Below, in pieces: positions 44,851 to 64,000 of a DNA stretch of 64,000 nucleotides. How positions within the stretch are numbered: position 1 is the stretch's first letter; the number at the start of each line of letters is the position of its first letter. Origin of the DNA: Leptolyngbyaceae cyanobacterium (GTDB lineage: Bacteria; Cyanobacteriota; Cyanobacteriia; Phormidesmidales; Phormidesmidaceae); NCBI GenBank assembly GCA_965263355.1, contig CBDHHL010000048.1, positions 230,017-294,016 on the forward strand. The letters are read 5' to 3'. Below the pieces are notes generated by a model. The model did not search any database. It had not been told where the DNA came from and saw only the letters and a list, made by a program, of their open reading frames with translations. The position numbers and the translations under genes were made by a program.

Positions 44851-45033
44851 GGGCCAGCTAAGTCGTCGGTTTCCCTACCAAAGTAGCTGGCCCAGGGTTA
44901 TTTTTGGATACCTCGACGGGTATCGCCGGAATAGGCTCTGGACTCTTCTGAGGCACACCCGACAGATTCCCATCTGCCAGTTCTGACCAGCCAGGTACCC
45001 AGCCATAGGCAAGGCACCAGCAATAGAAGAGTG
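44851..45033 (-). ncRNA. Structured 3' spacer of the DGR template RNA
   Basis: Directly 3' of TR on the minus strand; stems CAGAT/ATCTG, GATACC/GGTATC and a 10-bp GGGCCAGCTA/TAGCTGGCCC (44851-44860 with 44884-44893). Confidence 0.6.
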
Positions 45034-45147
45034 CTGGGGGCGCACTCACAACTCGAAAACCGATATTGTTGTTGCGGTTGCCGGGCTGATTGTTGTTGCG
45101 ACAGGCGGAGCGGCAATTCTCTGGATTGTTGATCCAGGAGCCGCCGC
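45034..45147 (-). repeat. DGR template repeat (TR)
   Basis: Reads [37 protein letters not shown] with ten AAY codons; not part of a CLec gene; lies next to avd. Confidence 0.96.
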
Positions 45148-45257
45148 TTCGCGGCCTACCCCACATCTAGCATACACAAAACACGAGCCCACCCAACAAG
45201 GCCATCCTGCCGTTAGCTGGGCATTCTGAGCTAACTGGTTACATCTACCCCACATCC

Positions 45258-45647
45258 ATGGCTGTTGAGCTGCCCATCCTGCAAAAAACCTATGACTTAA
45301 TTAAGTGGTACGTCCCTTTACTCAACAAACTACCCCGTGATCAACGGTTTCTATTGGGAAACCGCATCATCACCGGCCTCTACGAACTACTAGAAGGCCT
45401 GATCGTAGCCCGCTATCAGCGCGATAAACTCCCCCAACTACGACAACTCAACAGCAAGCTAGAAATCCTACGCTATCAAACCCGACTGCTGTTAGATTTT
45501 GACCTACTTTCCCACCGCCGCTACCAATACGTCAGCCAACTCATCAATGCCATTGGTACAGACCTTGGTGGCTGGATACGCCAGCAAGAGCAGAAACCAA
45601 AGGTCAGAAATCAGCCCCCAGAAACCACAGCCATTACTAACCGCTGA
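45258..45647 (+). CDS. avd: DGR accessory variability determinant (four-helix bundle)
   Basis: [11 protein letters not shown]...[13 protein letters not shown]...[10 protein letters not shown]; basic 129-aa protein ending 2 nt before the RT. Confidence 0.92.
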
Positions 45648-45649
45648 CT

Positions 45650-46711
45650 ATGCAACGCCATGGGAACCTTTGGCCCCAGGTCATCGACTTTGAGAACCTA
45701 TTGCTGGCCTCACGGCTTGCCCAGAAAGGCAAACGCTTTCGGCCCAATGTCCTCGCCTTTAATGACCGGCTAGGGGCAGAGCTTTTACAGCTCCAGACCG
45801 AACTCACCCACTTTACCTATCGCCCCGGCAACTACCGCACCTTTAGAATCCGCGATCCAAAACCACGCATGATTTCGGCAGCACCCTATCGAGATCGGGT
45901 GGTTCACCATGCCCTATGCAATGTGATCGTGCCATTGCTAGACCGCACGTTAATTAACCACACCTATGCCAATCGTCTGGGCTATGGCACCCATCGGGCA
46001 CTCACCCAGTTTACTGACTGGGCACGGTGTTATCCCTACTGCCTGCAATGCGATATCCAAACCTACTTTCCATCAATCGATCATGAAATCCTCAAGTCCA
46101 TCATCCGGCAACGGCTCAAGTGCCCAGACACCCTATGGCTCATTGACACCATCATCGATGCCAGTAACGACCAGTTCCCCGTTCTCGAATACTTTCCAGG
46201 GGATAACCTGCTCACGCCCGTAGAGCGACGACGAGGGCTGCCCATCGGCAACCTCACCAGCCAGTTCTTTGCCAATTTGTACCTCAGCCCCTTCGACCAC
46301 TTCGTTAAACGCCAGCTCAAGCTCAAACACTACCTGCGCTATGTGGACGACTTTGCCGCCTTCTCAGATGACCAGCAGGAACTGGCCGATGCTCGATTGG
46401 CCATGGAAGATTATCTGGCTACCCTGCGGCTAAAAATGCACCCCATAAAAAGCCAGCTATTTGAACCTCGATATGGGGCCAACTTTGTCGGTTTTCGCAT
46501 TCTGCCTGATCGCATCCGTGTCCGTAATGATAATGTGCGCCGAGCCCGGCGACGGCTCAAGTACTTGCAACGTCGTTATGCCGCTGGAGCAATTGAGCTA
46601 GAGCCGCTGGTCCAGCGCCTGCAGAGCTGGGAAGCCCACCTGAAGCATGGCAATACCTATCGCCTGCGGCAAAAGGTATTTGAACGCCATACGTTTATTA
46701 GACACGAATAA
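45650..46711 (+). CDS. DGR reverse transcriptase
   Basis: [33 protein letters not shown]-type [10 protein letters not shown] and catalytic YVDD; 353 aa with no maturase or endonuclease extension. Confidence 0.96.
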
Positions 46712-46741
46712 GAGGAATGAATTTAGAGGGTAAGAGGGTAA

Positions 46742-46768
46742 TGGTTCCAGGCAGAGCCTGGGAACCAG
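46742..46768. repeat. REP-like hairpin downstream of VR2
   Basis: TGGTTCCAGGCAGAGCCTGGGAACCA; a related hairpin GTTCCCAGTCTCCGGCTGGGAAC lies at 44778-44800. Confidence 0.7.
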
Positions 46769-46781
46769 AAAGGGTAAAGGG

Positions 46782-47633
46782 TTACACAAGAGAGCCTGGG
46801 GGCGCACTCACAACTCGAAAACCGATATAGTTGTCGCGGTGGCCGGGCGGATGGTTGAAGCGACAGGCGGAGCGGCAAAACTCAGGAAAGTTGATCCAGG
46901 AGCCGCCGCGCAGGATGCGGATATTCGTCATTACCGTCAGTCATCCAGGCACTTCCATCTGTAGGCGCATTTCTTATAAGTTGTCATGCGAAATATCCTG
47001 GCACCATTCCCATACATTGCCATGCATGTCGCATAGGCCAAAGGCATTAGCTACATCAAAGTGATCAACTACAGTAGTTTCTTCTCGATATTCGCCTTTG
47101 GGGCCAGAACCATAGGAACCTGACCAGTTGTATTCTTCGCTGTCAGTGCCTCGGTAATTTGCTAAATCCGTCGTAATCGTTTCGCCAAAATGAAAGGGTG
47201 TTTTTGTACCTGCCCGACAAGCATATTCCCACTCGGCTTCGGTAGGGAGCCGGTAAGGACGGCCTGTATGGGCTGAGAGCCTTGCACAGAACTCCACAGC
47301 ATCGTCCCAAGATACCTTCTCCACAGGCCGATTAGCCCCCTTGAAACTGGATGGATCAACATCTAATTCCCGTTCCACCGGGGACATCTCCGCCACAGCT
47401 CGCCACTGGGCCTGAGTCACCAGATACCGCGCCATAAAGAACTGAGACACCCTCACCTCGTGCTGAGGGCCTTCGTTAGACTCACGCTTTAACTCATTCT
47501 CTGGAGACCCCATTAAAAACGTCCCTGCCGGGATACTCATCATCTCCAGGGGGCTCACCCCTGAGGCAATAGACTCTTCGTAATACTGGTTTTGCCCCTG
47601 ACTTTTGTTGATGGTGACAGCTTGAGCCTGCAT
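46782..47633 (-). pseudogene. DGR target 2: stand-alone FGE-sulfatase/CLec protein, interrupted as sequenced by three single-base duplications
   Basis: The ORF stops at WCQDISHDNL*. Removing an extra T, A and C in 46920-46980 restores HDNYKNAPTDGSAWMTDGNDEYRILRGGSW...[14 protein letters not shown]. May be intact in vivo. Confidence 0.8.
46796..46909 (-). repeat. DGR variable repeat VR2
   Basis: 114 nt; 12 substitutions against TR, all at adenines, with no indel. Confidence 0.95.
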
Positions 47634-47669
47634 AGTTGCAAAGGGTAAGAGGGTAAGAAGGGTAAAGGG

Positions 47670-50379
47670 CTACGGAAGAGAGCCTGGGGGCGCACTCACA
47701 ACTCGAAAACCGATATAGTTGAAGCGGTAGCCGGGCCGATCGTAGTATGCGACAGGCGGAGCGGCAAAACTCTGGAAGGCTGATCCAGGAGCCGCCGCGT
47801 AGGACACGTCTAGAGTTATTACCATCAACCATCCAGGCACTGCCATCCGTGGGCGCACCCCTGTAATTGTCATGCCAAATATCCTGACACCATTCCCAAA
47901 CATTGCCATGCATATCTGATAAACCAAAGGCATTGGCAATCTTGAATTCCGTTACTGAAGTCGTTTGCTCGCGATATTTTCCCTTAGGACCATTGCCGTA
48001 GGTATAGCCGCCATTGTAATTAGCAACTTCAGTCGTTAGGGTTTCGCCAACGTGAAACGGCGTTTTTGTCCCTGCCCGACAGGCATATTCCCACTCCGCT
48101 TCGCTGGGCAAACGATACAGACGTCCAGTGTCATTCGATAACCGTTTGCAAAACTCCACAGCATCTTCCCAAGAAACATTCTCCACAGGCCGATCAGCCC
48201 CTTTAAAGCCGGATGGCTCAGCCTTTAGCTCACAGTCCACCTGGGGCATCGCCGCCACCACTCGCCACTGAGCCTGAGTCACCGGATAGCGCCCCATCAA
48301 AAAGCCAGCAACCGTCACTTCATGCTGTGGCCCTTCACTGTCGATTCGGCTAAGCTCATCCTCTGGAGACCCCATCAAAAAGCGACCACTGGGAATCGCC
48401 ACCATCTCCAGCGAGATATCTGCCCCCAACTCTTCCAGAAATCGATAAGCCTGACCACGGGTCTTGGTCACCACCCAGCGCTGCCGCCGTAAAAAGCCTG
48501 TACGTTTACGCTCTAACGTCGCCACCTGACACTCAAACAGCTCCAGACCATCCCCAGGCAAACTCACCGTCGCAATCTCAAAGGTAGCCGTCTTTAACGA
48601 TGGATACTCAACCGTCGGCTCAGCCTCTGAGTCTACAAGCGTCCCTTTGGTAAACTCCAGTACCTCCAACGGTGGATAGTCAACCTTATTATCTGGAGCT
48701 AAAGACTGCACAACGGTTTCCGTCTCCACAGCTGCCACCAACTCTGCATACTGCCCCCCCAACCGCCGCAGGGCCTGCTTCGTCACATTGGCAAATTCCA
48801 AAAACTCACTGCCTGCGGTCTTCAGCTCCTCCTTCAGCCGCAGCAGCGCCATAAAGCTATAGATCGACTTACCCAGCTTGCTGCCAATATAGGCTGACAC
48901 TTCGTTCAGCACCTCCTCTGCCGAGTCTGTCCTGACCGTATCCACCAGCAGTTCCCGCACACCCTCCACAAACCGATAATGCCGTTGCTGATCAAACAAA
49001 CTCCCCTGAGAAACTCCCTTGGATCTATCGACTTCCCCAGCCTCAGGCTTTACCCGCTCAATCAGCCCACTTAAAAACACCTCCGCCACATGCAACGGCG
49101 ACGACTCTGGCAACAGCTTGGCCTGAATGATATACACCAGTGACAGCTCCACCGGCACCAACGCCATTAACGACGCCAACTCTCGGGCCGTTTGCGATGC
49201 CGTTTGACTAAATTGATTTACCAGCTGCTCAGCATAGTCTGGCTCAGTCTGGGTAGCCACGGGGCCAGCAGCCACCAGCTCTGGATCATCTACCTCATCC
49301 TCCAGTTCATCCAACGGATACCAAATGCCCGCCGTTTGGGTATCACCAAACCCAGCCAACACCCTAGCCCACTGAGCCATGGACGACGGTTCTAACGTAA
49401 TGATCGGCAGCTTTAGCCCTGGGCCATACTCCCGATGAAACTCCTGAGGTAGTGGGTCCACTAGCTGGGCATTGGTCCCCCCTGGCCCCCGTGCCGAGAA
49501 TGTGGTTTGTAACCCAGCCTCTAGGGCTGTACGGGACCACATGCGCGACGGCAGCATCTGCAAAATCGCCACGGGGCCATGTTTTGCCCATGGGTCCAGA
49601 TAGTAAGTCTGCAATTTTCCCCGCTGCCATGCGGTCGAAATGCAATCGCTAACCACCACGATCAACCGTCGCCCAGATGCATCGATCAGCCCCTTTGGAT
49701 CGCGGGGGCGAGGCATGGCTTCTGGCATCGGACGCTTAGCATACAGCGCTGTGGCACCACCGGCAGAGGTTTGCAAATACCACACCGTCACGGTACGAAA
49801 CGCTCCCTGCCGTTCTAACACCTGCTGAAAGTCACGAATCGTATCGCGCCACAAAAAGCTAGAGGCAGAATCTTCGACCACCAGGGCCAGTTCTAACCAT
49901 CGTTCTCGGGCAGGCTGCACCATGGTCATACAAAACTGACGCTCAGCCGTCTGTTCCGCCGTCGCCTCTTCATCCAACTCCGTTTGGGTGTAGGAGTCCA
50001 CTCGCCGCATCAAGGGCCGTAGTGAACGCCCCAAGGCCAACGTTCTGCGTAGGGCCGGAGACGTTGGTGTGGCAAACGGGATGCCCTTGTTAGGGGCTTT
50101 AGTTTTCTGAGTCTGAGTCTGTTGGGTTGTTTGACTGTAGAGAGAAAACTCAGCAGCTGAAGGCGGCGGCGCTGGCGGCGTATTATCGATCTCAATTTCG
50201 ACAGTCTCGTCAGGCTCTGACCTTGAGTCTGGTTCCTGCCTTTCCCCTGCTTCCGGAGCGTCAATGTAGCTCGTCAACCACAATAAGTCAGCAATATTCT
50301 CCCCATCCCAATCGATACCCGCATTTTTCACACGGGCAATCACTGTCGCCAAATTAGAAGAGAAATCCTGCTGTACCAA
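47670..50379 (-). CDS. DGR target 3: vWA-like (SAV_2336-type) N-terminal domain plus C-terminal FGE-sulfatase/CLec domain (+1 frameshift in its VR as sequenced)
   Basis: LGRSLRPL, LDEEATAE, LELALVVEDSAS (degenerate MIDAS) and IVVVSDCIS..W; full CLec motifs. Removing one base at ~47748 restores [14 protein letters not shown] at 47670. Confidence 0.9.
47684..47798 (-). repeat. DGR variable repeat VR3
   Basis: 115 nt; 12 substitutions, all at TR adenines, plus one insertion (AAC to ATAC). Confidence 0.95.
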
Positions 50380-50383
50380 TGGC

Positions 50384-51388
50384 CTAAGCCCCCGGCCCTG
50401 ACAATGGCTTCAGAATTTTTTGCAGCAGGTCACTATCAGCGGATAGATCCGGTGTCCCCTCTTGAAGTAATAAATAAATGGCATTGAGCAGTTGATCTGT
50501 CGCCAACGACTCACGATCTCGCTTCTCCACAAAGGCTTTGATCACCGGCTCCGCCTTCGTCAGCACGTCACCGTCTAATTTCGCCAAATGCCGTTGCACA
50601 ATATCCGCCAGTTCAGCCTCTGTCGGCTCACCCATATCCAACCGAATACAGCGCCGCAAAAACGGTGGTGGAAAATCCCGCTCACCATTGCTGGTTAAAA
50701 TCACAAACGGAAACGCATTACACTGCACCTGCCCCTTTTCAATGGTGGCCGTTTCATCCTCTTCAGCATAGGAGGTCCCCACATCCACTGTAGGTAGTAC
50801 TTCCTTAATGCGCTCCAGCTCATCAATCCGAAAGCGCCCTTCCTCAAAGGTATGGAGCAAATCATTGGGCAAATCAATATCGCTCTTGTCAATTTCATCA
50901 ATCAGCAACACCCGAGGTTTTTGGCTCCCTTTAGGCACCGGCAACAGTGCCGTACCCAACGGCCCCAAACGAATATATTTACCAATGGCCTTTAGCGCAT
51001 CGGCCCGATCTTTGGGTAGCTTATTAGTCTGGTCAAACTGAGAGTCTTGCAAGCGACCAATGGCATCGTAACTGTATAGGCCCTGCTTTAGGGTAGTACG
51101 TGTCGTAATTGGCCAGTAAAGCACTTCCCCCAGCTTTAGCTCATGGGCCACCGCATAGGCCAGCGACGTTTTACCCGTCCCCGGCTTCCCCGTAATCAAC
51201 AATGGCCGCCGTAGATAGAGCGCCGCATTAACCAGCTCTATCTGAGCCTCATGGGCCTTAAACGTGGTCCCCTTTTGCTCCTGATACTGATTTACATCCT
51301 GAAACGCTCGCCACCCTGGTGGAGGCGGCAAACGCTCTAGATCATCGTGGGGCTCTCCAGTCCCCTGATAGATTTTCCAAGAAGTCAT
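50384..51388 (-). CDS. MoxR-family AAA+ ATPase
   Basis: LPPPPGWR, AALYLRRPLL, Walker A GKPGTGKT, Walker B LLIDEIDK, TSNGER and FLRRC. Confidence 0.93.
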   Translation of the reverse strand: MTSWKIYQGTGEPHDDLERLPPPPGWRAFQDVNQYQEQKGTTFKAHEAQIELVNAALYLRRPLLITGKPGTGKTSLAYAVAHELKLGEVLYWPITTRTTLKQGLYSYDAIGRLQDSQFDQTNKLPKDRADALKAIGKYIRLGPLGTALLPVPKGSQKPRVLLIDEIDKSDIDLPNDLLHTFEEGRFRIDELERIKEVLPTVDVGTSYAEEDETATIEKGQVQCNAFPFVILTSNGERDFPPPFLRRCIRLDMGEPTEAELADIVQRHLAKLDGDVLTKAEPVIKAFVEKRDRESLATDQLLNAIYLLLQEGTPDLSADSDLLQKILKPLSGPGA

Positions 51389-53205
51389 AGTCTGGCAGCA
51401 GATAACTTAACATTTGGCGGCACTCGATTGGGATCATCCCACAAGATTGCTAAATGATGACCCAACTTTGGCGATTGAGCATATTCTGTCTCGGATTCTA
51501 AAGGAGGTGTATTACGCCGTATTTCTAACACTTTCTCAGGCACATCTTTTAGCGGATGAGAAAGTACCTGATTAAGCAGCTTTGGACTCCAGTCCTCTTC
51601 AGACTGGTTATTCCTCACCCAAACAGCTACAGGAATACCTTGCTTCGCCAGTAGTTGAGGATCGCTCTGGGAATTTAATGAACTTAACTTTTGAAACCCC
51701 ACAATCCCAGCATCTTTAAGGTTATCACTATCGGCAAACACCTTATGGGCGGACACCGTCGCTTTAGCGGACTTTAATTTCCATGTCTTTTTCCATCGAG
51801 CATTGGCCTTGAAACCACCCAGGTTAGAACGCTTTTGCAATGCCAAAATCACCCGCTGACAATCGTCACTGCCAATGCCTAATGGTTCATCTTCTAGCAT
51901 TAATCGCTCCCAAGGTTCATTGAGTAGTGAAGTTGGCAACACAAAGTACACAGTTAATTCACCCGGATCACACTCATCGTCTAACCCTCCACATAGTTGC
52001 ATTAGATAGCTTTCCAGCAAAATCGGTAAGTCACCATAAGCAACCTGATGCTCTGAAAGATGACCATAATTGTCATCTTCCGGAGAAAACAGGAGCCGAC
52101 GACTACCCTGCAAGGTCTGAGTGCTATATTTTTCAGGATCTAAAACAGCCCATGCTTCAACCGATAGGCTTTCTCGACTCGCATCCTCTTGAATATTGAC
52201 CAACAGCATCGGATCACGGGGTTCAACCTGTTGCTCTTGCCGCTTTGCTTTTTGTGCCTGCATCGCCGCTTTGGCAGATTCCAAGTCCTTCGCATATCGA
52301 CTGCCCCATTGATACAACCGCTCTCTTGGCTCTGCTAGTTGCTCTATCTGTTGGGCCTCTAGCTCTAGCACCAGGGCCGCTACAAATTGGACTAACTTAT
52401 CTTCTTCCTGATCAGCACCCGCCGTTGCATTCGCTAGCTCATCGATAATCTTGTGGGTTTCTCGCTGAACCGGAGTCACAGCATTTTGAGACCGACACAG
52501 ACCATAAGCCCGCTGAATAAAATTTAGAATATTTACCTCAGCAGCATCCAAGATATCCGTAAGAGTCTTACGCCGCAAGTAGTTCAGAGGCTCACGGAGT
52601 ACATCCTTAGGCATCATGTAAGCCAAGGTTACAGACTGCTGCTTATCCTTTTCAGCTGCAACTGTCATCCCCACGACAGCATTTAACTGTTCATCCCAGA
52701 TAGGTGAACCACTAAAACCCTGTTCCAGTGAACGATCTTGGCCCATTTTTGCATCTAACTGAACCCATCGTTTCCCAGTTTCACCCCGCAAGGTAGCCGT
52801 TGCCCAAACTCCGTCAGTATGACCTTTAGGAAAACCAAACACTCTTAGGGGATGTCCCCAAGCATCTGACGATGAAACTATTCCAACAGGCTCAGCATTA
52901 GCAGGTGCCGATGCCAATAACTTGAGCACAGCCATATCTTCTGAAAAGGCTGTCTTTGAAACTGGCAACCAGAAAACAACGGATGCCTCTACTTTTTGTC
53001 CTGGTGCTAGCAACGGCAAATCAAGCTGTACCGACTGATCAGGTATGGCCTCTGTATTCTCAGACAACGACAAAGCTGCCGCCACCACATGGGCACAAGT
53101 GAGCACATAACTCTCAGCTACCAAAAAGCCAGCACCGACGACATTGCCATTAGCGTGATACAACCTAACAACGGAAGACTTTAGCGGTTCTAAACGATCG
53201 GACAT
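51385..53205 (-). CDS. Trypsin-like protease fused to a vWA-MoxR-associated (VMAP-type) C-terminal domain
   Basis: Intact triad TCAHV / EDMAVL / GFSGSP; C-terminal FVLPTSLLNEPWE, GIPVAVWVR and LAILWDDPNRVPP; its stop overlaps the MoxR start (ATGA). Confidence 0.85.
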   Translation of the reverse strand: MSDRLEPLKSSVVRLYHANGNVVGAGFLVAESYVLTCAHVVAAALSLSENTEAIPDQSVQLDLPLLAPGQKVEASVVFWLPVSKTAFSEDMAVLKLLASAPANAEPVGIVSSSDAWGHPLRVFGFPKGHTDGVWATATLRGETGKRWVQLDAKMGQDRSLEQGFSGSPIWDEQLNAVVGMTVAAEKDKQQSVTLAYMMPKDVLREPLNYLRRKTLTDILDAAEVNILNFIQRAYGLCRSQNAVTPVQRETHKIIDELANATAGADQEEDKLVQFVAALVLELEAQQIEQLAEPRERLYQWGSRYAKDLESAKAAMQAQKAKRQEQQVEPRDPMLLVNIQEDASRESLSVEAWAVLDPEKYSTQTLQGSRRLLFSPEDDNYGHLSEHQVAYGDLPILLESYLMQLCGGLDDECDPGELTVYFVLPTSLLNEPWERLMLEDEPLGIGSDDCQRVILALQKRSNLGGFKANARWKKTWKLKSAKATVSAHKVFADSDNLKDAGIVGFQKLSSLNSQSDPQLLAKQGIPVAVWVRNNQSEEDWSPKLLNQVLSHPLKDVPEKVLEIRRNTPPLESETEYAQSPKLGHHLAILWDDPNRVPPNVKLSAARL

Positions 53206-53213
53206 CAGTCAGC

Positions 53214-53549
53214 CTACGACTGCCCTCCCCACTTAAGCGTCACCTCAAAAGTGACCTCACTACCCACGGAGCTAAATACTACACCCGCTTCTGCGCTTAA
53301 CTTCAAGCCAAAGGTAACCTCGACTTCATCAGCAGGCGTCGTTAAACCATCCTTCAACTTTGAAACCACCGTTGACGCAACAGGCTTAATCGCATCCAGG
53401 GCCTCATTTAAGTTTTTCTTGGCCTTATAGACCATTTCGGTCGTTTCGGTCAATGCTACGCGCTCAATAGCATTGGAGTTAGGCTCATCAATCTCAACGA
53501 GAAAAGGGGTCCCGTCTTCTAACGTGAACTGAGCTAAAGCTTTATCCAT
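53214..53549 (-). CDS. Trypsin co-occurring (Trypco1 / CU044_2847-like) protein
   Basis: FTLEDGTPFLVE, DEVEVTFGLKLSAEAGVV and FEVTLKW motifs; GAGGAG RBS; directly upstream of the trypsin gene. Confidence 0.82.
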   Translation of the reverse strand: MDKALAQFTLEDGTPFLVEIDEPNSNAIERVALTETTEMVYKAKKNLNEALDAIKPVASTVVSKLKDGLTTPADEVEVTFGLKLSAEAGVVFSSVGSEVTFEVTLKWGGQS

Positions 53550-53864: not shown

Positions 53865-54203
53865 TCACTCACCAAAGTTTTTGTCAATCTCAAATCCTTT
53901 AGATTGAGCCAAAAACACCTGATTAATTCCCCTCACAGTAGCGATGTCTTTTTCTACTGAGTCAAGGCGTCTCTCTAACTCTTTAAGCAGAATATTAGTG
54001 TGGTTACTCAGTGATTTATAATCTCGCTTGAGATGATTAATATCACGCTCTAACCCATAGCTATGACGAACCCTAGCAACAAAGAAGCCAATCACACCGG
54101 CTGCCGTTGAAAAAACTGTTATCGCTAACGGTAGATTCTCTATCAAAAATTTGTTCATGATGACTAAACGTAAAGGGCGATCCAAGATCGCCCTTTTTTC
54201 CAT
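53865..54203 (-). CDS. Single-TM plus coiled-coil protein (holin-like architecture)
   Basis: TM segment LPLAITVFSTAAGVIGFFVA followed by heptad repeats. Confidence 0.6.
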   Translation of the reverse strand: MEKRAILDRPLRLVIMNKFLIENLPLAITVFSTAAGVIGFFVARVRHSYGLERDINHLKRDYKSLSNHTNILLKELERRLDSVEKDIATVRGINQVFLAQSKGFEIDKNFGE

Positions 54204-54222
54204 GGGAGTTTCAAGGAATCAA

Positions 54223-54597
54223 CTATGCCGCGTGTTCTTCAGATTTGCTGGGGTGGACAAACCCGATTGAACAAATGTTGGCAGTCCCCTTGTTGTCTAT
54301 CTCAGACTTACAGGCTGGATAAACAACCGCCATCGGCGGAATACCCGATACATCATCTGTGAGCTTCCATCCTTCATGGGGTTGACAGCTCTCGACTTTG
54401 CAAGCTTCCGAATAAATGACGTTCCCACTGCTAACCTCTAGAATGCCCCATTTTCTATCTCCAACTGGCCTATCTTGCGAATGAATCAAAACATACTGGT
54501 CATAGGGCAGCTTTTCAAGCCACTGGCTAAAGTCAAGCTTTAATAGGTGACCCGGTTTTGGAATCGTGACCACGCCATTAACAATAGGTCTAATCAT
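54223..54597 (-). CDS. Hypothetical protein
   Basis: GGAGG RBS; part of a co-oriented gene string. Confidence 0.7.
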   Translation of the reverse strand: MIRPIVNGVVTIPKPGHLLKLDFSQWLEKLPYDQYVLIHSQDRPVGDRKWGILEVSSGNVIYSEACKVESCQPHEGWKLTDDVSGIPPMAVVYPACKSEIDNKGTANICSIGFVHPSKSEEHAA

Positions 54598-54611
54598 CGG
54601 CTATGGCCTCC

Positions 54612-55319
54612 TTACAGGGTATCAGGTACGTCTTCACCGTCACCACCACTGTCACCGGCTGGAGGTTCTGCAGGAGGCTGATCGCCAGATTCAGCATTAA
54701 CCTGATCTAAGGATGTTGGCAACACACAGTTAATCTGCAACCGTTGCTGAAAGGCCATATAGCCTGCCTGAACCGCATTATAGATATCGGTAACCGCTTC
54801 ACAGCGAATGGCATCCGCATCAAGGCCCAGGGAGTCCAGATCAATAGTCTCAAGCTGACCTTGCAAGGCAGCAATTTGTTGCCCTTGGGTCGCTTGAGTA
54901 GTCTGAATATTAGTCTGGTTAGTCTGCAAATTGGTGATCAGATCACCATGCTGATTAATTTGTTGTTGCTGGCTGTTATAGCTGCTTTCCAGCGCATCAA
55001 GGCGATCTTTAACCTGTTGCAGGTCATTAACGCCGTCGCCATCCTGGTCTTGCAGCGATTCAATCAGTTGTTGTAACTGTTGAACCTGAGCCGTAAACCC
55101 ATCCTGGTTAACCAGCGTATCTAGAACCGTTTGCATCGCTGCAAATTGTTCTAAGACGAATACGCGATCCGCCACCCGACCATCACAGATGGCCGTCTGT
55201 AAGGCTTCACCCATTTGGTCAAAGAATTGAGCAATATATGCCGGGTTCACACAGTCACCGTCTGGTGTGGTGTATCCTGTAAACCCTTGTGTGCCTTCAC
55301 CGTTCTGAACAGTAACCAT
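54612..55319 (-). CDS. Acidic Gln-rich coiled-coil (fibre-like) protein
   Basis: Long heptad region with a DQDGDGVND Ca-binding-like loop. Confidence 0.7.
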   Translation of the reverse strand: MVTVQNGEGTQGFTGYTTPDGDCVNPAYIAQFFDQMGEALQTAICDGRVADRVFVLEQFAAMQTVLDTLVNQDGFTAQVQQLQQLIESLQDQDGDGVNDLQQVKDRLDALESSYNSQQQQINQHGDLITNLQTNQTNIQTTQATQGQQIAALQGQLETIDLDSLGLDADAIRCEAVTDIYNAVQAGYMAFQQRLQINCVLPTSLDQVNAESGDQPPAEPPAGDSGGDGEDVPDTL

Positions 55320-55331
55320 AGGTCAAATTAG

Positions 55332-55925
55332 CTAAGTTTTCTTAAGAAACAAAAGTGAGCCATAGATCTCAGGCTCTACATTGGTGCGATAACCGAAACC
55401 CCACGATTTTGAGCGGTCTCGGTCACACCGCATCTCAGCCACAAACTGAGTCGGCTCAGTAACCGCCAGTAGTCCGCCCATGGGGATGTGCCAGCTGTAA
55501 TGCTCGGAATAAGTGCTGGCCCCATAAATCGGGGTGAGCGAGCCGCCCAGGGGTCTCAGACGGCATCGCATCCCCGAGTTTTCCATTCCCGTTAGCCAGC
55601 CGTTCACGACATAACGGCCCGATGGCAGTTCAATCCGGCCAGCGCTGGGGAATGGCGTAATGGAACCAAATTCATTTAACGGATCGGCATAATTAAACGG
55701 TCGTTCAATCCAGGTATTGGGTGGGTGAAAACTTCCCCCACTCTGGCCAGATGGCCGACGGATTTGAAAACTCGCCCAACTCACCGCCGCTAACGAATTA
55801 GCCCCATTGATGGACTCATGGGGAAACGCTCGATAGGAGGTGCCCCCACGAGCAACAAAGAATTGATCGCTTGCCTGAAACGGCATAGGTAACAACGGCA
55901 AGTCTGAGAAGTCAGTCCCACTCAT
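55332..55925 (-). CDS. Putative receptor-binding/spike protein (beta-sandwich, C1q/TNF-like)
   Basis: N-terminal FSDLP...DQFFVARGGTSYR resembles fibre attachment motifs; SGGSF...W..R..N, IELPSGRY and GFG....EIYGSL resemble phage fibre-tip domains (recognised from memory). Confidence 0.55.
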   Translation of the reverse strand: MSGTDFSDLPLLPMPFQASDQFFVARGGTSYRAFPHESINGANSLAAVSWASFQIRRPSGQSGGSFHPPNTWIERPFNYADPLNEFGSITPFPSAGRIELPSGRYVVNGWLTGMENSGMRCRLRPLGGSLTPIYGASTYSEHYSWHIPMGGLLAVTEPTQFVAEMRCDRDRSKSWGFGYRTNVEPEIYGSLLFLKKT

Positions 55926-56428
55926 GGAAAAACGATCAAGTCTCCGAAAAATGTAAACTCTTCTGTTGGTAAAGAATCCCCAACTCCAAACAAAATCAAC
56001 CCCGTCTCTTGTTCGTTTGCGTCTGAGAACACGTCTGGTAATTGTTTAGCCCATATCTCGATTTGATAATCCGTTAGCCAGGTATGGGGCCAAAACTCAA
56101 AGTAGTAGCTAAACCCATCACCCGTAAACGAAAAATACTGATTATCTAGATAGACCCGTTCTACTTGCTTGCGTGGTGATGCAATCGGCGTACCACGCAA
56201 GCTTTGAACAAAATATCCCGCCCGCTTCCAGCCACGGTCAGCCCCTATGCGTGAACTAATTTTCACCAGCACACTGGCTGATAAAGACAGCTCAAACGTG
56301 AACAACTTCCCCCTAGCTGCATTGGTGTAGTAAGTCGTTAATCGCTCAAACGTATCTGATAACAACGTTGAGGTAAATACACCGAAGTAAGACGATGGAT
56401 ACAAGACCGGACCATAACGGCCAGACAT
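55922..56428 (-). CDS. Hypothetical beta-rich protein
   Basis: Coupled to both neighbours (ATGA and TAATG overlaps); WKRAGY...YYFEFWPHTW...IEIW. Confidence 0.7.
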   Translation of the reverse strand: MSGRYGPVLYPSSYFGVFTSTLLSDTFERLTTYYTNAARGKLFTFELSLSASVLVKISSRIGADRGWKRAGYFVQSLRGTPIASPRKQVERVYLDNQYFSFTGDGFSYYFEFWPHTWLTDYQIEIWAKQLPDVFSDANEQETGLILFGVGDSLPTEEFTFFGDLIVFP

Positions 56429-56763
56429 TAGTTATAGGAACGATTGAGAACACGGTACACGTATTCCACTTTGCCGAGTCCCGTAACATTTTTACCGACA
56501 ATAGACTTTAAAGCATTATCCACTTTGCCAGCAGCACAATAAACATAGCCTCTAGCCTTGCGCCTCTTGGTATCCCGCTTAGACCCCCGTAGCCCTAGCT
56601 TGATAACCGCTCGTTTTGCAGCTTCCCCAGTCAGAATATTATTTTTACTGGTTGTTGTTTTTGCACCAACAATAGACCCTAGGGTCTTGTAAATATCTGG
56701 CTTAAGTGACAATGCAGCTGCCGAATTGTTGAAATCGAAATAATACGTTTTAAGTTCTGCCAT
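56428..56763 (-). CDS. Small basic protein
   Basis: K/R-rich (RGSKRDTKRRKAR), 111 aa. Confidence 0.7.
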   Translation of the reverse strand: MAELKTYYFDFNNSAAALSLKPDIYKTLGSIVGAKTTTSKNNILTGEAAKRAVIKLGLRGSKRDTKRRKARGYVYCAAGKVDNALKSIVGKNVTGLGKVEYVYRVLNRSYN

Positions 56764-56797
56764 CGTTCATCATCTCAATAAAATTGTTCAAACTGAC

Positions 56798-57031
56798 TTA
56801 AGACAGATACTCATCAGCTGTATACGTGATAGCCCCTGCTGCTCCCGATAGTGTGGTGGGCAGCGTCAGGGCAACGGCCACCGTACTCGCTTCGGTGTCT
56901 GGAGTAATCGTGATGTTATTCAACGGAATTTCATCAGTCGATTGAGTCGCCTCAGCTGCCTGAATCGCTAAGGCAATTTCTAGGGCCTGACCTTCTAGGG
57001 TCGTTGCTGTGGTTGTAATTGCAGCCGCCAT
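56798..57031 (-). CDS. Small Ala/Thr-rich protein (candidate virion subunit)
   Basis: Strong AAGGAG RBS; helix (TLEGQALEIALAIQAAE) followed by beta-strands. Confidence 0.7.
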   Translation of the reverse strand: MAAAITTTATTLEGQALEIALAIQAAEATQSTDEIPLNNITITPDTEASTVAVALTLPTTLSGAAGAITYTADEYLS

Positions 57032-57162
57032 AAGTCTCCTTGATAAGTAATCGTTGATTCAAAAAAATTGGCTGCTTTATCAATGCCCCAAATGGTTATC
57101 AGACTGGGCATTCTGGCAATACGTTTGTCCCTTCCACCCTAGGGTAGAAGGGTATATGAAAC

Positions 57163-57378
57163 ATGTCCAAAAAAATTGCTCGATTGTGGATAGATGAGCA
57201 TCATTCAATCCGTAGCTTGAATGATGCCAGAAAGGCCGGATTAATGTTTATCAACACAAAAGAATATGCTAGACGTGAGCATATTCACGTACGCACGGCA
57301 CGCCATAGAGCTAAGCAAGGCAAGGTCAGAGCCGAGAAATTTAAGGGTGAATGGTTTTTTTTAGTTAAAGGCGTTTGA
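57163..57378 (+). CDS. Excisionase-like HTH DNA-binding protein
   Basis: INTKEYARREHIHVRTARHRAKQGKVRAEK..GEWF pattern. Confidence 0.7.
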   Translation: MSKKIARLWIDEHHSIRSLNDARKAGLMFINTKEYARREHIHVRTARHRAKQGKVRAEKFKGEWFFLVKGV

Positions 57379-58029
57379 TCCACTTGGGAATAGTATCTAG
57401 ATCTTCGTCAAATTTTTTCACCAACTTAGCTTCAACCCTAATCACTTTAAGGTTTCTATTACTGTTCTCTGTATAAACTGGCTGACTACCCGGAATAAGG
57501 TAGCGACTATCAATGAGAGTCTCACAGTAGTTTAAAACCTTGCGCCCCTCAGCTTTGCTGTTAGCATTGAGCACTACGCTAGATCCATCTCGTAGCGTTA
57601 GCGTACAAGTCACATTTCCCTTAGTGAATTGAGGAAAGCGAAAATTATAATTATCTCTAATTCCATCTTTTGGATGAGGAATATACATCTTCCATCGAGA
57701 ATATCGCTTGGTGCCCGATACAGGCCCCCACTGAACAAGTAATTGACTTTGATCCCGTAGCTTGTAAGTCCCCTTTTTAACTCCCATATCATGGGGATTG
57801 ATGGCTCTTCTAGCCCACGACCACGGACCAAAAAATATAAAAACATACGGCATAGCGCCATCGGTGCCGTGTCGTTGTCTTTGATCAAGCAGGCATACCG
57901 TAAAGCACTTTCAGGGGTGCTAATGGTATCGTCTGGGATGCCATCTCTAAAATCGTCACGAACAACCCGGTTATACAGTCGCATTAACACCGACTGCAAA
58001 AATTCCCATTCATTCCCCGGTGCTGGCAT
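57365..58029 (-). CDS. Hypothetical protein split by a single frameshift
   Basis: ORFs 57610-58029 and 57365-57853 join into one ~221-aa protein if one base is added near 57785 (...IPMIWGVKKGTYKLR...). Confidence 0.6.
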
Positions 58030-60839
58030 TTACGCGCCCCCCACAGATGGATCATCTAGGTTGTGGGGAGCTTGAGACGCTGCCTTACTAACCGCCTCTG
58101 CCTCCGTCAACGGCTCAGACCATGGATCATCGACTAATTCACCTTCGGTCTTGATAGCGGCCCTCAGCTCGGCTCTCTGCTCCTGTAGCTCATTTGAAAC
58201 CTCTTGGATGCTGACTAGCTCATCAGCGACCAGGCCAACGGCGCTAACCGCCTCGTCCGCTCGGTCAATGCGATTACTGAGTGCTTCCCAGCGCTTGCCC
58301 GTTTGATACACCCGATCAAACCGCTCAGACATCGCCCCATAGGCATTTTCTAACACCGTGCCAGACCGCCGCAAAGCATTACCGATCCTAGCCACATTCT
58401 GGCCGATGGTTTCTACAATCATTTGACCACTATCAAAAATTGACCACATCGACCAGTAGAGGTTGCTAGCCGCCTGGTAGATTCGATTTGCCCGTGTCAA
58501 CGTTGCCGCTATCTCTTCCCGTTTGGCTTCCCCAATTGCCCGATCAATCGCCGATGTAATTAACTCAGAGATTTTCTCACTAACTCCAATTGGGTTTCCT
58601 TCAGAGTCTTCTAAGTGTAGCCCAAACAATCTCATAACAGAATCAATCGCCCATCCTGCCGTTTCTGCCAGCTCTCGGCTCAGAAAATACGCATTGTGCA
58701 AATTCATCGCAAAGTTTGCCACCGCTAACAGTCGATCAATCTGCAAAAAGTCCCAGGTCTTTTTAGTCAGCGTTTGGATCGTGTTTACAACAGTCGCTGT
58801 AGTTGTCACAATGCCTGCTGTTGCCGTCGTCGTCGTATCAATTTTAGCAAGCAAGCTTAGATCAGGAATATCATTAAGCTTGTCTGATAGCCGTTTTTCT
58901 AATCCACTAAGCGCATTATCAGTATGGGCATTTATTCCCCCATTGCAACCACAACCAGATCCTTTAGTTGTTACTGGGGGATTCGTTTTAACACCTTGTT
59001 TTGGTGGATTTAATGCATTGGTACGATTTGGCAAAGCTGGCATAGCTAATGCCGGTATAAAATTAGAAAAACTTACAGAATCTGTACCTGAGTTCTGTAA
59101 ACGTTGCAGTAATTTGTCATGAATAGAATCGCCTGAATCAGAAGCATTCCCTAATTTTCTTTCGCTTTGTTTACTAGGGTTAGTAGGATCAGGAGTATCA
59201 AAAAAGTCAGGATTAATTCTATTATCTTGAGCTGTGTTATTACTTGGAGGGGGTGATGTTTTGTTGTTATTTAATCCATGCTTATTCGGGCTATTAGAAT
59301 TTTGATTATCCCCACTAGAATTTCCCCCAGATTGTAAACCAGCTTTTCTTGCATTATTTCTATCTTGATTATTTATATTATCTGCTTGGTCTTGAGTTGG
59401 TAAATTGTTGGGTGCATCATTTGGAGATTTATCTAAATCTTTTGCAGGATCATAACCGGTAGGTTCGTCTTTACCATCACCATCTTTATCTGGATTTGGT
59501 GATAAATCTGGCAAATCGCTAGGTGGTGGAAACCTTGCAGGATTACCGTCTTTTTCATTTGGATCTACACTACCGTTGTTATCACCTTCGTTATCTAACT
59601 CAATTACGTCTTCAATCTCTAAACGCATATCAATACGTTCACTGTTACTTGTTCCTGTTCCCGCAATAATATTTCTAATCGCAAAAGGCTCAAAGTGATT
59701 ACTAGCTCCATCGGGGGATGTAACGCCTATATATTTATGATTACCACCACTTGAATATGTAACAGTACCAATAGGGCCTCTTGCAACAATACTATCTGTT
59801 CCTAAATCAATCCAACCTTCATCTGCCCTTGAATGGGGCTCCATATATCTTCTATGTGTACGATATAGAACATAATAATGTTTGCTATCGTCACCGTAAG
59901 TATCATCACCAACAATATCTCCCGGTTGTTTTTTAGCAGAAGATTTAGGAGCAACTGCTTTAGTATCGTTTCCTGGATTTCTACCTAATAAACTATTTAA
60001 GTGGTCCCCAACACTAGGGCCAAAAGGTTTACCAATAGCCCCATAGATTTTATCTCCTAAAAATAAACCACCACCTAATGCAGCTGTACCTAAAGCAGCA
60101 ACTACACCAGCTGGATTTGCTGCAACAGGAGCAAACAAACCACCCCCAGCACCGGCAGCACCAGCACCGGCAGCACCGGCAGCACCTGCTCCTTTAGTTT
60201 TTGCCAATATAACTGTACCCGTAGCTTGAGTTATAGCTTGAGCACCTTGCTGTTTTGCAAATTGACCAGGACTTGTTGTTGTTCTAGGTGCTGATGTTGT
60301 TTTATTGGCTGCAGCATTCCACCGTTGAATTGCTGAACTTCTTTGTCCTGGTGTATAAGCATTATTTACTGTTGCCGTTCCTGAGTTACTAGCTACATTT
60401 CCTCTTGTACTACCAAAATTATTTATATTCTTAGCAGCTTGTGTTGTTCCTCTTGGGCCAGAGGTTGACGTTCTATTTCCAGAGGAAGCCTGTTGTTGTC
60501 GGTGAAAATTAAGACTTCTATTTAATGCATTAGATATCCCACCTTGTTGTGTTTGTGCTGGGGAAGGCGGTTTTAAGTTTAAAGGTTTCCTTATATTTAG
60601 TTGTTGTGGATTCCTAGTTCTTAAAGTTAAGGAACCTGATTCTTTATAAGGTAAAGGATTACTTGTATTTGTGCTAGGAGATCTTTGTAACTGGAACCCC
60701 CTCCTCCTCTAGATTGCACACCATAATTAGGACTGCTTAAATCCCCTGAAGTAATTCCAGAATTACTATTTTTATAGTACTTAGCTGCGTATTCATTCAA
60801 AAGAGTAGTTGCATTACCGGGGGAATAAAGAGTAGGCAT
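58030..60839 (-). CDS. Large (~936 aa) low-complexity/helical protein, candidate adsorption or DNA-pilot protein; one frameshift near 60700
   Basis: The frame of ORF 58030-60207 is open back to 60708, and one extra base in the C5 run 60697-60701 joins it to ATG 60839. Contains a Gly/Ala hydrophobic segment, a Pro/Asp/Asn spacer, GCGC and a helical C-terminus. Confidence 0.7.
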
Positions 60840-60880
60840 AGCGTATAACTAAATAGTAGTAACAAATAAGGAAGCAAGTT

Positions 60881-60979
60881 ATGTATTTCTTATTTGGCGC
60901 GTTATTTTACACGGCACTGTTTTTAGTCTTGCAACTATGGGCACGTCGTTTATGGAATTGGCATAAAAAAGACAAATAA
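60881..60979 (+). CDS. 32-aa hydrophobic peptide
   Basis: Not in the ORF track. TAAGGA RBS, MYFLFGALFYTALFLVLQLWARRLWNWHKKDK*, followed by a hairpin at 60982-61010. Confidence 0.6.
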   Translation: MYFLFGALFYTALFLVLQLWARRLWNWHKKDK

Positions 60980-61022
60980 AAAGTAGGGGGCATTTGTTGC
61001 TTCCCCTACTGAATCTGCTTAT

Positions 61023-61337
61023 TTAAGTTGGTTGTAAATACTCTGGGGGAATAACTCCGGAATAGTAAGGTTTTGTTGCACTCCAAAGATTGTCATAAGA
61101 TCCCGTAGAATAGTCTGGTTGTAACCTTAAGTTTGCTCGAATTGAAGCAAACATTTCTTTATCGTAATTTCTAAAAACTGATTGTTGAACACGCTCTACG
61201 CGTATTCCCTCTGCCTCATTGTAAGTTTCACCGTTGTTCATATATTCCAAAGTGAACATAGCCCAAGCAGTTAAACTTTCTAAGCCGTTTACAAAAGCAC
61301 TATCAGGGATCTGTTCGCGGGTGATGACGATGGTCAT
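61023..61337 (-). CDS. Hypothetical protein (candidate virion subunit)
   Basis: 104 aa; IP...LESLTAWA..L...N...RV.Q...R..L.L..DY....LW...IP; co-oriented with the structural-like block. Confidence 0.7.
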   Translation of the reverse strand: MTIVITREQIPDSAFVNGLESLTAWAMFTLEYMNNGETYNEAEGIRVERVQQSVFRNYDKEMFASIRANLRLQPDYSTGSYDNLWSATKPYYSGVIPPEYLQPT

Positions 61338-61643
61338 ATTTAATCAATGAGCAATACTGCGATCCGCAGCATGCCCAAACCGCCCATATCAATATCGATT
61401 GATTGCAATGCTCGCACCTAATCAAGTCATACTCACCTACAGAGTGAGCGCGCAATGTTATTGAATTTAGGTCATACTATGACTTCATGGGCTTGATGGT
61501 CCGTGAAAAAGAATATCTAAACAAAGCCTCTGTGATTGTGCAGGGGCTTTTTATTGCGTTGATAACTCATCAAGGGGACTTGCTGAATCTGGGGTGAATA
61601 GGCCATAACAGGGGTAGATATTCTTTATTCAGTTCCTGGATCC

Positions 61644-62072
61644 ATGACAGACCCTTTAACGGCAGCATCAATTGCAACGCTCATCTTTACGACAGCGGTT
61701 GGCAAGCTTACTGAAGCGTTGACTGAGGATGCACGTAAGCAACTAGGTCAAAAGTTACAGGCCTTGAAACAGCTCATTGGTAATAAGTTTCAAGGTAAGG
61801 CTAAATCGGCGCTAGCCAGTGCTGAAACAGGTGACAAGCAGGCTATTGATAGGTTTTCCAACCATCTGGGTGTAGCGATGGATCTTGATGATGAGTTTGA
61901 CCAGCAGGTGAGGACACTGGCGCAGGATATCCAACAGATGCTCATCAGCATCGATCAGTCGCAAGGGCAAAATATTCAGAATGTATTTGACGGTGGCAAA
62001 GGAACCCAGGTAAATCACTCGACGGGAACTACGATCACGGGTGACAACAATACAATCCACGTTGGCCCTTGA
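61644..62072 (+). CDS. Bell-like helical protein with C-terminal N/Q/G/T-rich amyloid-like motif
   Basis: MTDPLTAASIATLIF hydrophobic first helix, helical body, tail QGQNIQNVFDGGKGTQVNHSTGTTITGDNNTIHVG; directly upstream of an NB-ARC gene. Confidence 0.65.
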   Translation: MTDPLTAASIATLIFTTAVGKLTEALTEDARKQLGQKLQALKQLIGNKFQGKAKSALASAETGDKQAIDRFSNHLGVAMDLDDEFDQQVRTLAQDIQQMLISIDQSQGQNIQNVFDGGKGTQVNHSTGTTITGDNNTIHVGP

Positions 62073-62108
62073 CCAGAGTCGCCGAGTGCAGGCTCGTCAA
62101 AGTCAACC

Positions 62109-64000
62109 TTGCAAAGGGGGGTACCCCGTCAGGCAGAAAAGCTGCCCCCTAACTACATCCCTCGGCCAAGGCCGTTTAATGCGGTCAAGACTCTTCTACT
62201 AAATGGCACAGACACCGCCACCAGTACCCTGGTGGTGAGCGCTATTTATGGTTTAGGCGGCATTGGTAAATCAGTCTTAGCCGCTGCCCTCGCTGCCGAT
62301 ATCGAGATTCAAGAGCGATTCCCTGACGGCACTCTCTGGATCACCCCTCGGGCAAAACCCTGACCTACTGCCGATGCTGGGCAGCTGGATCCAGGCACTG
62401 GGGGACTATAAATATCAGCCGCTAACACCGGATGCAGCGTCATCCCATCTGCGGACTCTGCTCTACGACCGTCAGATGCTGCTGATCGTCGATGATGTCT
62501 GGAATCCGGCCCATCTGGAACCGTTTCGGGTGGGCAATCAGAATAGCTGTGTCCTGGTCACCACGCGGGGGGCTCCGATTTCTGGGGCGAAAAAGTATGA
62601 CCTGGATGTGATGACGCCAGACCAGGCGATGGAGCTACTCACACACCAGCTCTCAACGCCACTCACCCCAGAAGACCAGCAGCTGGCCGCTGCCTTTGCC
62701 AAACGGGTGGGCTATTTACCCCTGGCGTTAGAGCTGGCCACCGCTCAAATTGAAGAAGACCTGTCTTGGGACGAACTACTCACCGACTACCAGACTGAGG
62801 TAGAACGCTTGGACGTCCTTGATAAGGTGTGTAAAGACGACATCCCCGACGATGAAATTCGACGAAAGTATAGCCTGATTGCCTGCTTTAATCTCAGTCT
62901 CAAAAGTCTCACCCCAGACCAACAAACTTACTTTGCTTGGCTGGGAGTGCTGCCTGAGGATGCTGATATTACCAAGCGTATGGCAAAGACCCTCTGGCAA
63001 CTCACAGCGCGGCAGGCGGGCAATGTATTAAAGGCATTTCGCACTAAAGGACTGCTTAAAGGAGAACGACCCACTTACCGACTCCATGACTTGATGCATG
63101 ATCTGGCTGTGCAGCTATTAAGGGGGCCTGTACACCCCGATGGAGAGGCCTTAAAAGGGTTAGGTAAACCCTTGCCCGATGCCCATCAGCACTTATTAGC
63201 ACTCTATCAACAACAAACCAATAATCACCAATGGCACACCCTGGAGGATGACGGTCACATCTATGACTATCTCACCTGGCACATAGAACAATCTGAGTGT
63301 CCACACCTCATCCATCAACTCTTTCAAGAAACCACTGATAAGGGGCGTAATGGCTGGTACGAAGCCTGTGAGCGTGTTGGTAAACCCGGTCTCTTTGCCA
63401 GCGATTTGGCCCGTGCATGGCAACTCACGCTCAACACCCCATTAACGGCCAACGACATTATTCCCCTACAGGTCCGCTATGCCTTTATTCGGGCGTCTCT
63501 GAATAGTCTGGCCGACAATATTCCGGCCCCGATGGTCAGTGGTTTACTGAAAGTCGGCCTATGGCAACCGGCCCAGGCCCTAGCCTATGCGCAACAAACC
63601 TACAATCCCTGGCGACGGGCTGAATATCTCATGGCGTTGGTGCCCCATATGCCTCGGGCGCTATTGCCTGAAGTTTTGGCACTGTTAGAACAGATTAATT
63701 CTCCGGCCTATACCAGTATTGTTTTATCGAAACTTGCCCCCGACTTTCCTGAATTATGGCCCAGGGTGCTAGAAACCATTGCCCAGATTCGTGATGTGAT
63801 CGGTGACTTCAACAGATCCAGAGCAAAGGGGTTTTCCTATCGGGCCTTGGCATTAACTAAAATACTCTCTGATTTACCCGCTAACTATCTTCCCGACGCT
63901 ATCGAGATCACACGAACCATTCAATCTGACTATGACCGCGCCAGAGCCCTGAGTGCGATGGCCCAACACCTGCCTGAACTCTGGGAGCAAGCCATCGACA
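62109..64000 (+). CDS. NB-ARC (STAND) NLR-like protein with helical repeats; +1 frameshift near 62345; truncated by the window end
   Basis: Walker A GLGGIGKS. After removing one C from the C4 run the frame continues WITLGQNP...LLIVDDVW (Walker B), VLVTTR, GYLPLAL, YRLHDLMHD and stays open to 64000. Confidence 0.88.

Follow-up and report, generated by a model that had tools for sequence, protein, structure and literature searches.

The 64,000-nucleotide stretch of DNA analysed here (the window), from a Leptolyngbyaceae cyanobacterium, ends in a locus at which an effector gene with a putative amyloid signalling motif is joined, in one reading frame interrupted by a single TGA codon, to the coding sequence of a NOD-like receptor (NLR). 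The effector open reading frame (ORF; 61644-62072) encodes 142 amino acids, and N, Q, G, T, I or V make up 27 of its last 35 residues. Past the stop, the frame runs through PESPSAGSSKSTL into the start of an NB-ARC domain with its P-loop, where the Pfam NB-ARC family scores over the cut-off. A first-pass annotation had reported this ORF and its N/Q/G/T-rich tail, the TGA-C at 62070-62073, the in-frame linker and a TTG at 62109 as the supposed NLR start, and each of these was verified. It had also read an NB-ARC ORF from that TTG: the frame is indeed continuous into the P-loop, but the ORF comprises merely 84 amino acids, and a frameshift had been overlooked. The extension of the effector frame closes at 62363, and an extra base in the C-run at 62344-62347 places the rest of the NLR, including the second half of its NB-ARC domain, in the +1 frame (Table 1). 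The C-terminal repeats that begin before the window ends are displayed by a full-length relative, P0074. On inspection, the window also contains photosystem I and other typical cyanobacterial genes; a promoter and terminator scan returned results at chance level.

Table 1. Features of the effector-NLR locus, in window coordinates
Feature	Position	Strand	Basis
Helical, Bell-like effector domain of five to six helices; N-terminal helix hydrophobic, residue 3 acidic	61644..61964	+	AlphaFold2 model
N/Q/G/T-rich C-terminal motif, BASS9-like by eye, putative amyloid signalling motif	61965..62069	+	composition; conserved in 22 aligned proteins
In-frame TGA stop, conserved (element positions 1-3)	62070..62072	+	
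8-nt spacer, consensus CYRSAGYC	62073..62080	+	
Stem S1 (positions 12-16/17 with 24/25-29) and loop (62087-62092)	62081..62098	+	pairing counts, two-sided changes
A-rich linker AAAGTYAA; positions 32-36 (62101-62105) alternatively pair with the stop and the next two bases (P0)	62099..62107	+	
Putative pseudoknot stem S2, 3' strand, pairing with the S1 loop; includes the supposed TTG start at 62109	62108..62113	+	
NLR part 1, effector frame: element-encoded linker, NB-ARC N-terminus, P-loop; no motif copy	62073..62363	+	
Extra base in the C-run, shifting the window copy into the +1 frame	62344..62347	+	
NLR part 2: NB-ARC remainder, winged-helix, APAF1-like helical region, start of C-terminal repeats; leaves the window	62374..64000	+	

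The layout of the effector ORF is beyond chance, because its relatives share it. Besides the query, 21 of 23 effector homologues are 140-143 amino acids long and end directly after the motif (the other two are shorter, with unrelated tails), and all 16 loci found through protein homology (four from genomes and twelve from metagenomes, 13 of them distinct besides the window) have an in-frame stop, bearing out the expectation that homologous loci would conserve it. This stop is TGA in 14 loci and TAG in two, and the same frame enters an NB-ARC domain in 15 of the 16, the sixteenth ending at a contig edge. Across a wider set of 71 loci there are 66 TGA, five TAG and no TAA stops, whereas TAA ends 16 of the 34 long ORFs in the window. 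The earlier searches had included the stop, so the codon was left free in a later search pattern; nevertheless, TGA occupied this position in 40 of 40 matches.

These data bear on the simplest alternative, in which the window holds a nonsense-mutated all-in-one NLR, or a sequencing error at the TGA. The separate frameshift in the window NLR would suit a pseudogene, as would the existence of all-in-one fusions such as P0074. However, the stop is kept across many genomes, both as TGA and as TAG, and dN/dS (the ratio of nonsynonymous to synonymous rates) is approximately 0.1 on either side of it. Nor is the codon a sequencing artefact: the contig of run X2 has no differences from the window over 61960-62110, and hence carries the TGA, and among the differences listed for the contig of run X1, which belongs to the same study, none falls at the TGA (105 further rows lie beyond these). 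The stop at 62070-62072 is therefore real, and this alternative, which the first-pass annotation had kept beside its preferred reading, is refuted by the conservation data and has a negligible probability. The frameshift is another matter. The X1 contig, aligned over 61395-62747 with 10 substitutions and one gap, is without the extra C-run base, so the window frameshift appears to be either an assembly error or an allele private to this strain. Two relatives (L002 and L007) are intact at the corresponding position, and dN/dS between them and the second part of the window NLR is 0.09. Elsewhere near the locus, two bases of the window, 61594 and 61212, are contradicted by the contigs of all four runs and of three runs, respectively, and are window-specific alleles or errors.

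The effector has the features with which the text of the Dyrka et al. preprint describes Bell domains: within a protein of 120-140 amino acids, a helical domain of about 100 that begins with a hydrophobic helix and whose residue 2 or 3 is acidic. D3 is invariant in 22 aligned effector proteins, in which the motif is also conserved, and an AlphaFold2 model places helices at residues 7-107 with a mean predicted local distance difference test (pLDDT) score of 66, and beta strands of low pLDDT in the tail. The tail resembles a bacterial amyloid signalling sequence (BASS), being a C-terminal stretch of about 25 residues rich in N, Q, G, V and I, an assignment made by composition and not with a BASS profile. 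By eye, it is close to the BASS9 (Cya03) entries in the supplement to PMC8086366, where tails from sister loci match BASS5 and BASS7 entries. In database comparisons, no Pfam family scored over the cut-off for the effector, Foldseek found no match to its model at E<=0.001, PADLOC gave no meaningful match, and a Protein Data Bank sequence search returned TAL-repeat matches only, with no passing stretch. In structure comparison the best match was VIA (Z 7.2), and the ZAR1 coiled-coil reached Z 6.1 (root-mean-square deviation 3.1, 75 aligned residues), neither being significant. The ESM Atlas placed the effector among cyanobacterial clusters, one with HetE-N in 18% of its members, which is a lead only.

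What distinguishes these loci is the RNA that follows the stop. The first-pass annotation had ascribed a leak to a weak UGA-C context, but the evidence instead favours a dedicated, structured element of 44 nt. The loci can be aligned along it without gaps. With the stop as positions 1-3, the spacer CYRSAGYC takes up 4-11, and the two strands of a stem, S1, lie at 12-17 and 24-29; an A-rich linker follows at 30-38, and bases 39-44 are the complement of the S1 loop, such that the whole would fold as an H-type pseudoknot. In 30 loci, 84% of S1 and S2 cells are paired, compared with 68% after shuffling and 21-44% with slid partners, and two-sided changes occur in 61 cells against 20 expected; in S1, four of the six pairs show such changes. 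Four of the five column pairs with the highest mutual information are S1 or S2 pairs. Over all 71 loci, the paired cells number 346 of 355 for S1 and 238 of 284 for S2, and in a later set selected without an S2 term, S2 is paired in 80 of 84. Constraint is also evident at synonymous sites, the proportion of synonymous differences (pS) in ten disjoint locus pairs being 0.106 within the element and 0.52-0.64 in its flanks, an approximately five-fold suppression. Rfam had nothing over the element in window 61400-62400, and six other loci had no match at E<=0.5. The 44-nt element is a conserved, covarying and apparently undescribed RNA.

The genome-wide searches for this element covered cyanobacteria. 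A DNA pattern containing no protein information gave 42 matches in 35 of 401 genomes (21 in the control); among 30 loci fetched, the 17 with both stems sit between an effector ORF and an in-frame NB-ARC/NACHT frame, the other 13 being chance matches. A covariance model gave 17 matches in 13 of 61 genomes from another order, and all 15 that were new had the effector/NTPase context and an in-frame stop (12 TGA, three TAG). The codon-free pattern found its 40 matches in 26 of 151 genomes, with none in the control; the 20 regions fetched cover 21 of these, every one lying between an effector (19 Bell-like, two CHAT) and an in-frame NTPase. Conversely, a census of effector homologues in five genomes picked for having the element identified 17 distinct loci, of which 11 have the stop, the element (3 nt longer in two cases) and an in-frame NLR; of the other six, three are broken copies, two are out-of-frame pairs of the classical kind, and one has a variant element ahead of a CHASE2 protein. 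The element is present in many filamentous cyanobacteria, and named carriers include Acaryochloris marina MBIC11017, on plasmids pREB4 (AM1_RS33645/33650) and pREB5 (AM1_RS35325/35320), and Nostoc sp. UHCC 0870 (L6494_RS29305/29310). Among 72,556 plasmids searched by BLASTN, the 66-nt element had six matches, all cyanobacterial; the plasmid matches L071 and L072 were without the element, and neither of two pattern matches in viral contigs had the effector/NTPase context.

Some of these loci depart from the common arrangement. At L059:1969-2020, a variant element (TGA, an altered spacer and a 5-bp stem) separates a Bell-like ORF from an in-frame CHASE2 protein, not an NLR. At L108:813 and L109:875, the element lies behind CHAT-domain effectors with N/Q-rich tails, and hence is not tied to Bell. 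In L106, a single contig holds two cassettes of effector, element and NLR, separated by roughly 5 kb (G622:C14:2402911 and 2407879).

The element may also adopt a second fold, P0, in which the stop and the two following bases pair with positions 32-36. It is paired in 89% of cells, with some compensation evident as C34 accompanying TAG in three of five loci, and G32 accompanying C5 in four of six; on inspection, P0 and S2 look mutually exclusive. Pairing across the stop is what A-to-I editing would use, were P0 a deaminase substrate and UGA or UAG converted to a Trp codon, as the stop at the hepatitis delta amber/W site is. The only stops seen are each a single A-to-G step from TGG, the editable A faces a mismatched C in four of the five TAG loci, and W stands in place of the stop in two database proteins, all of which, along with the frequent and partly compensated P0 pairing, would agree with editing. 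Yet the context of the editable A differs between TGA and TAG loci, and presumably neither context fits the TadA mRNA motif; we know of no ADAR in bacteria. Furthermore, near-cognate readthrough predicts the identical bias in stops and towards Trp, and a fixed 8-nt spacer followed by a pseudoknot better fits a signal acting at the ribosome, making editing improbable. The strong constraint on the RNA, and the seeming exclusivity of P0 and S2, could alternatively reflect a stop-hopping or bypass signal, a switch controlled by a protein or ligand, or an mRNA processing or stability element with an incidental leak. However, the codon before the stop recurs at no fixed offset, as hopping would need (best exact match 5/30), and a stability element needs neither constant spacing from the stop nor strict conservation of frame; we assign such roles a low probability. 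A UGA followed by a hairpin also recalls selenocysteine insertion through a selenocysteine insertion sequence (SECIS). This is contradicted by TAG in five loci and by the machinery of carriers: SelA was not found in five of five element-bearing genomes in which controls were detected, and no tRNA-Sec scored over the gathering score in the same five. As there is also no Cys among the fused variants seen, selenocysteine recoding was rejected as exceedingly unlikely.

If the NLR were translated separately, it would need a start of its own. An NB-ARC entry motif, loosely defined, is recognisable in 46 loci; in 23 of them no ATG, GTG or TTG precedes it, and in one an ATG does. The possible starts are scattered among loci; the window TTG at 62109 is part of the S2 strand, where the closest relatives have CTG, while the RefSeq start of the pREB4 Acaryochloris NLR is ATT. 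There are eight different distances from the stop to the entry motif, each keeping the effector frame. Between codon 15 and the first ATG, GTG or TTG, the proportion of nonsynonymous differences (pN) is 0.123 and pS is 0.541 in ten disjoint locus pairs, and the codons between the element and the first possible start are thus, on these comparisons, under purifying selection; upstream of them, the only standard start is that of the effector. Translational coupling, or re-initiation at a non-standard codon in or after the element, would nevertheless yield a separate NLR lacking effector and motif. In its favour, half of the loci have some candidate start before the entry motif, some have CTG directly after the stop, and annotation pipelines call a separate gene. 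Against it stand the scatter of these starts and their absence from the other half, the frequency of CTA, CCA or ACA as the post-stop codon, the selection on codons ahead of the first possible start, and the retention of the effector frame in all eight spacing classes. Moreover, a motif-less NLR would have no evident link to a motif-bearing effector, and re-initiation is accordingly unlikely.

That the receptor part lacks a motif of its own, as first proposed for the window, holds there (the local score between effector tail and NLR head is 18) and across the family: of 71 loci, 70 have no copy of the effector tail at the head of the NLR, the median score over the whole set being 19 and one locus exceeding 35. 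The classical out-of-frame pairs L064 and L066, with scores of 45 and 54, lack the element but do have a start and a motif copy of their own. L111 carries a second copy of the effector motif downstream of the element, and is possibly an intermediate between readthrough loci and classical pairs.

Proteins in which these parts form one chain are found in databases. P0034 and P0173 have W exactly at the stop position. In P0148, E replaces the stop and the peptide encoded by the element is retained, the effector and motif being fused to GUN4 (Pfam). In P0074, from Adonisia turfae, a related effector, motif and NLR form a single chain without the element. P0029, P0056 and P0112 have the same effector and motif fused directly to domains that by eye are TIR-like, GUN4-like or EAD-like. 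Among the best 150 profile matches, 14 are at least 199 amino acids long. No longer fused homologue of the window effector was seen among 991 candidates, in a weak search, as P0074 shows that fusions exist.

Taken together, a conserved in-frame stop separates two coding regions under purifying selection, and is followed by a conserved 3' context and an RNA structure at fixed spacing. The locus is therefore likely to be a programmed stop-codon readthrough cassette within an amyloid-signalling immune locus. The first-pass annotation had proposed that one locus makes both a free effector and a motif-bearing receptor; this reading is supported by the comparisons, whereas the weak stop context it invoked as the cause is not. 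Readthrough itself, its rate, the inserted residue, amyloid and pore formation, and an anti-phage role are what we infer from them.

Several observations weigh against this interpretation. Firstly, the evidence is sequence-based, and the stop and spacer were part of the patterns or model by which many loci were chosen; as the loci are also related, their counts do not represent independent events. Secondly, in the 15 loci from the covariance model, S2 is paired in just 28 of 60 cells and the loop-tail duplex is no better than swapped ones, and S2 is absent in L013; hence the pseudoknot is not universal. In addition, the window's own 53-nt stretch in isolation is no stabler than shuffled sequences (z -0.47). 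Thirdly, a possible start precedes the NB-ARC entry motif in half of the loci (23/46), and L111 has a second motif copy (score 71). Fourthly, the NLR in the window is frameshifted, and five of 49 downstream frames, the window's included, close within 250 codons; hence some copies decay. Fifthly, the Bell identity is suggested by descriptive features, no solved Bell domain being matched significantly in sequence or structure, and the W in P0034 and P0173 may reflect a TGG allele or a gene call under code 4.

Under programmed readthrough, the majority of ribosomes would terminate at the UGA, releasing the free 142-amino-acid Bell-motif effector. With the stop in the A site, the stem or pseudoknot 8 nt downstream would sit at the mRNA entry channel and slow termination, allowing a minority of ribosomes to insert a residue, most likely Trp from a near-cognate tRNA at UGA, and continue into a Bell-motif-NB-ARC-repeat fusion. 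On sensing a ligand, the fusion would oligomerise and its motif copies adopt an amyloid fold; so seeded, it would convert the excess free effector, the N-terminal helix of which would damage the membrane, causing abortive infection or cell death. The templating and killing steps are proposed by analogy with BASS pairs and with Bab/Agp. The motifs of receptor and effector would be identical by construction, and the RNA would set the ratio of the two products. A broader proposal, which the balance of evidence tips towards only slightly, is that the 44-nt element is a mobile cassette of cyanobacterial chromosomes and plasmids, which combines several effectors (Bell with BASS5, 7 or 9 tails, and CHAT) with several sensors (NB-ARC, NACHT, other STAND proteins and, in variant form, CHASE2). 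It would stimulate readthrough through its structure, in convergence on retroviral gag-pol, constitute a third architecture of such systems, and switch between a stop-sequestering P0 hairpin and the active pseudoknot, such that receptor output may rise under stress or infection.

Were this correct, it would provide a bacterial model for a downstream RNA fold competing with release factor 2 on the 70S ribosome, and a tunable tool to fix protein ratios. Readthrough would account for the many cyanobacterial Bell effectors that seemingly have no partner NLR motif, and the annotated starts of these NLRs (ATT, TTG or an internal GTG) would be wrong.

Other parts of the window contain further candidate conflict and mobile loci. 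A cassette resembling a diversity-generating retroelement (DGR) occupies 43837-50379, with bAvd at 45258-45647 and a reverse transcriptase at 45650-46711 amid three FGE-sulfatase-domain ORFs. Beside it, Trypco1, trypsin-VMAP and MoxR-like AAA form one run with a large FGE-sulfatase-domain gene (47494-53549), suggestive of a vWA-MoxR ternary-type conflict system. From 53865 to 61337 there is a run of minus-strand ORFs that looks virus- or plasmid-derived, those scanned having no Pfam match. Within it, ORFs 57610-58029 and 57365-57853 overlap in different frames, a possible frameshift; another may lie in the frame that stays open between 60708 and 58033, which offers no start before 60207 and overlaps ORF 60627-60839. 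At 37179-40475, small ORFs and a weak match to Prim-Pol come after a tRNA-Pro, which may mark an integration site.

The literature covered, which excludes most subscription journals as well as figures and bioRxiv supplements, contained no prior description of the element. The main text of the Dyrka preprint (bioRxiv 10.1101/2020.01.06.895854), as distinct from its figures and supplements, is silent on stop, read, frame and start codon; the accessible text of PMC7918605 does not mention cyanobacteria, NB-ARC, NACHT or pseudoknots, and that of PMC13506858 and PMC9815663 contains no readthrough terms. According to PMC7026636 and PMC13517186, in the portions available, structure-stimulated readthrough belongs to eukaryotic viruses and a few eukaryotic genes, bacterial cases being context leaks or selenocysteine. 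Those leaks, of 3-5% at the UGA between Q-beta coat and A1, and 1-6% in B. subtilis cat-86, resemble the proposed event in reading UGA as sense in bacteria, although they depend on codon context and, as described there, have no conserved structured element. Bacterial SECIS elements differ in needing SelA, SelB and tRNA-Sec, the first and last of which were not found in five carriers. The closest parallel at the level of RNA is murine leukaemia virus (MuLV) gag-pol, described in the same portions of these sources as having a stop, an 8-nt spacer and an H-type pseudoknot, spacers of about 8 nt being thought to put the fold at the entry channel. The geometry, the alternative pairing towards the stop, and the abundant short and minor long products would all be alike. 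However, MuLV is a eukaryotic virus using UAG, while the cyanobacterial element lies in bacterial chromosomal and plasmid genes, mostly has UGA, and has shorter stems; we do not claim shared ancestry.

At the level of the proteins, the text of the Dyrka preprint describes pairs in multicellular cyanobacteria in which a short helical effector with an N/Q/G-rich C-terminal motif immediately precedes a repeat protein of the NB-ARC or NACHT type, and at the window locus the NB-ARC frame is likewise adjacent and collinear. Such pairs are two genes, each described there with a copy of the motif, whereas at window-type loci the NLR, with neither a motif nor a conserved start, continues the effector frame beyond a stop and an RNA element. 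Hence the window locus, having no matching motif on a separately translated NLR, is not a classical BASS pair, although by analogy it would work like one. The available text on Bab/Agp, an E. coli antiphage system (bioRxiv 10.1101/2024.11.07.622273) in which a Bell-type executioner is activated via a shared amyloid motif, offers an experimental precedent for the proposed function; there, the two proteins are translated separately, and readthrough terms are absent from that text. Finally, all-in-one effector-NLR fusions have the architecture of the proposed readthrough product, but yield no free effector from the same gene. Two-gene pairs and all-in-one NLRs may therefore be joined by a third architecture, that of the readthrough loci, which would keep the motifs of receptor and effector from ever drifting apart.

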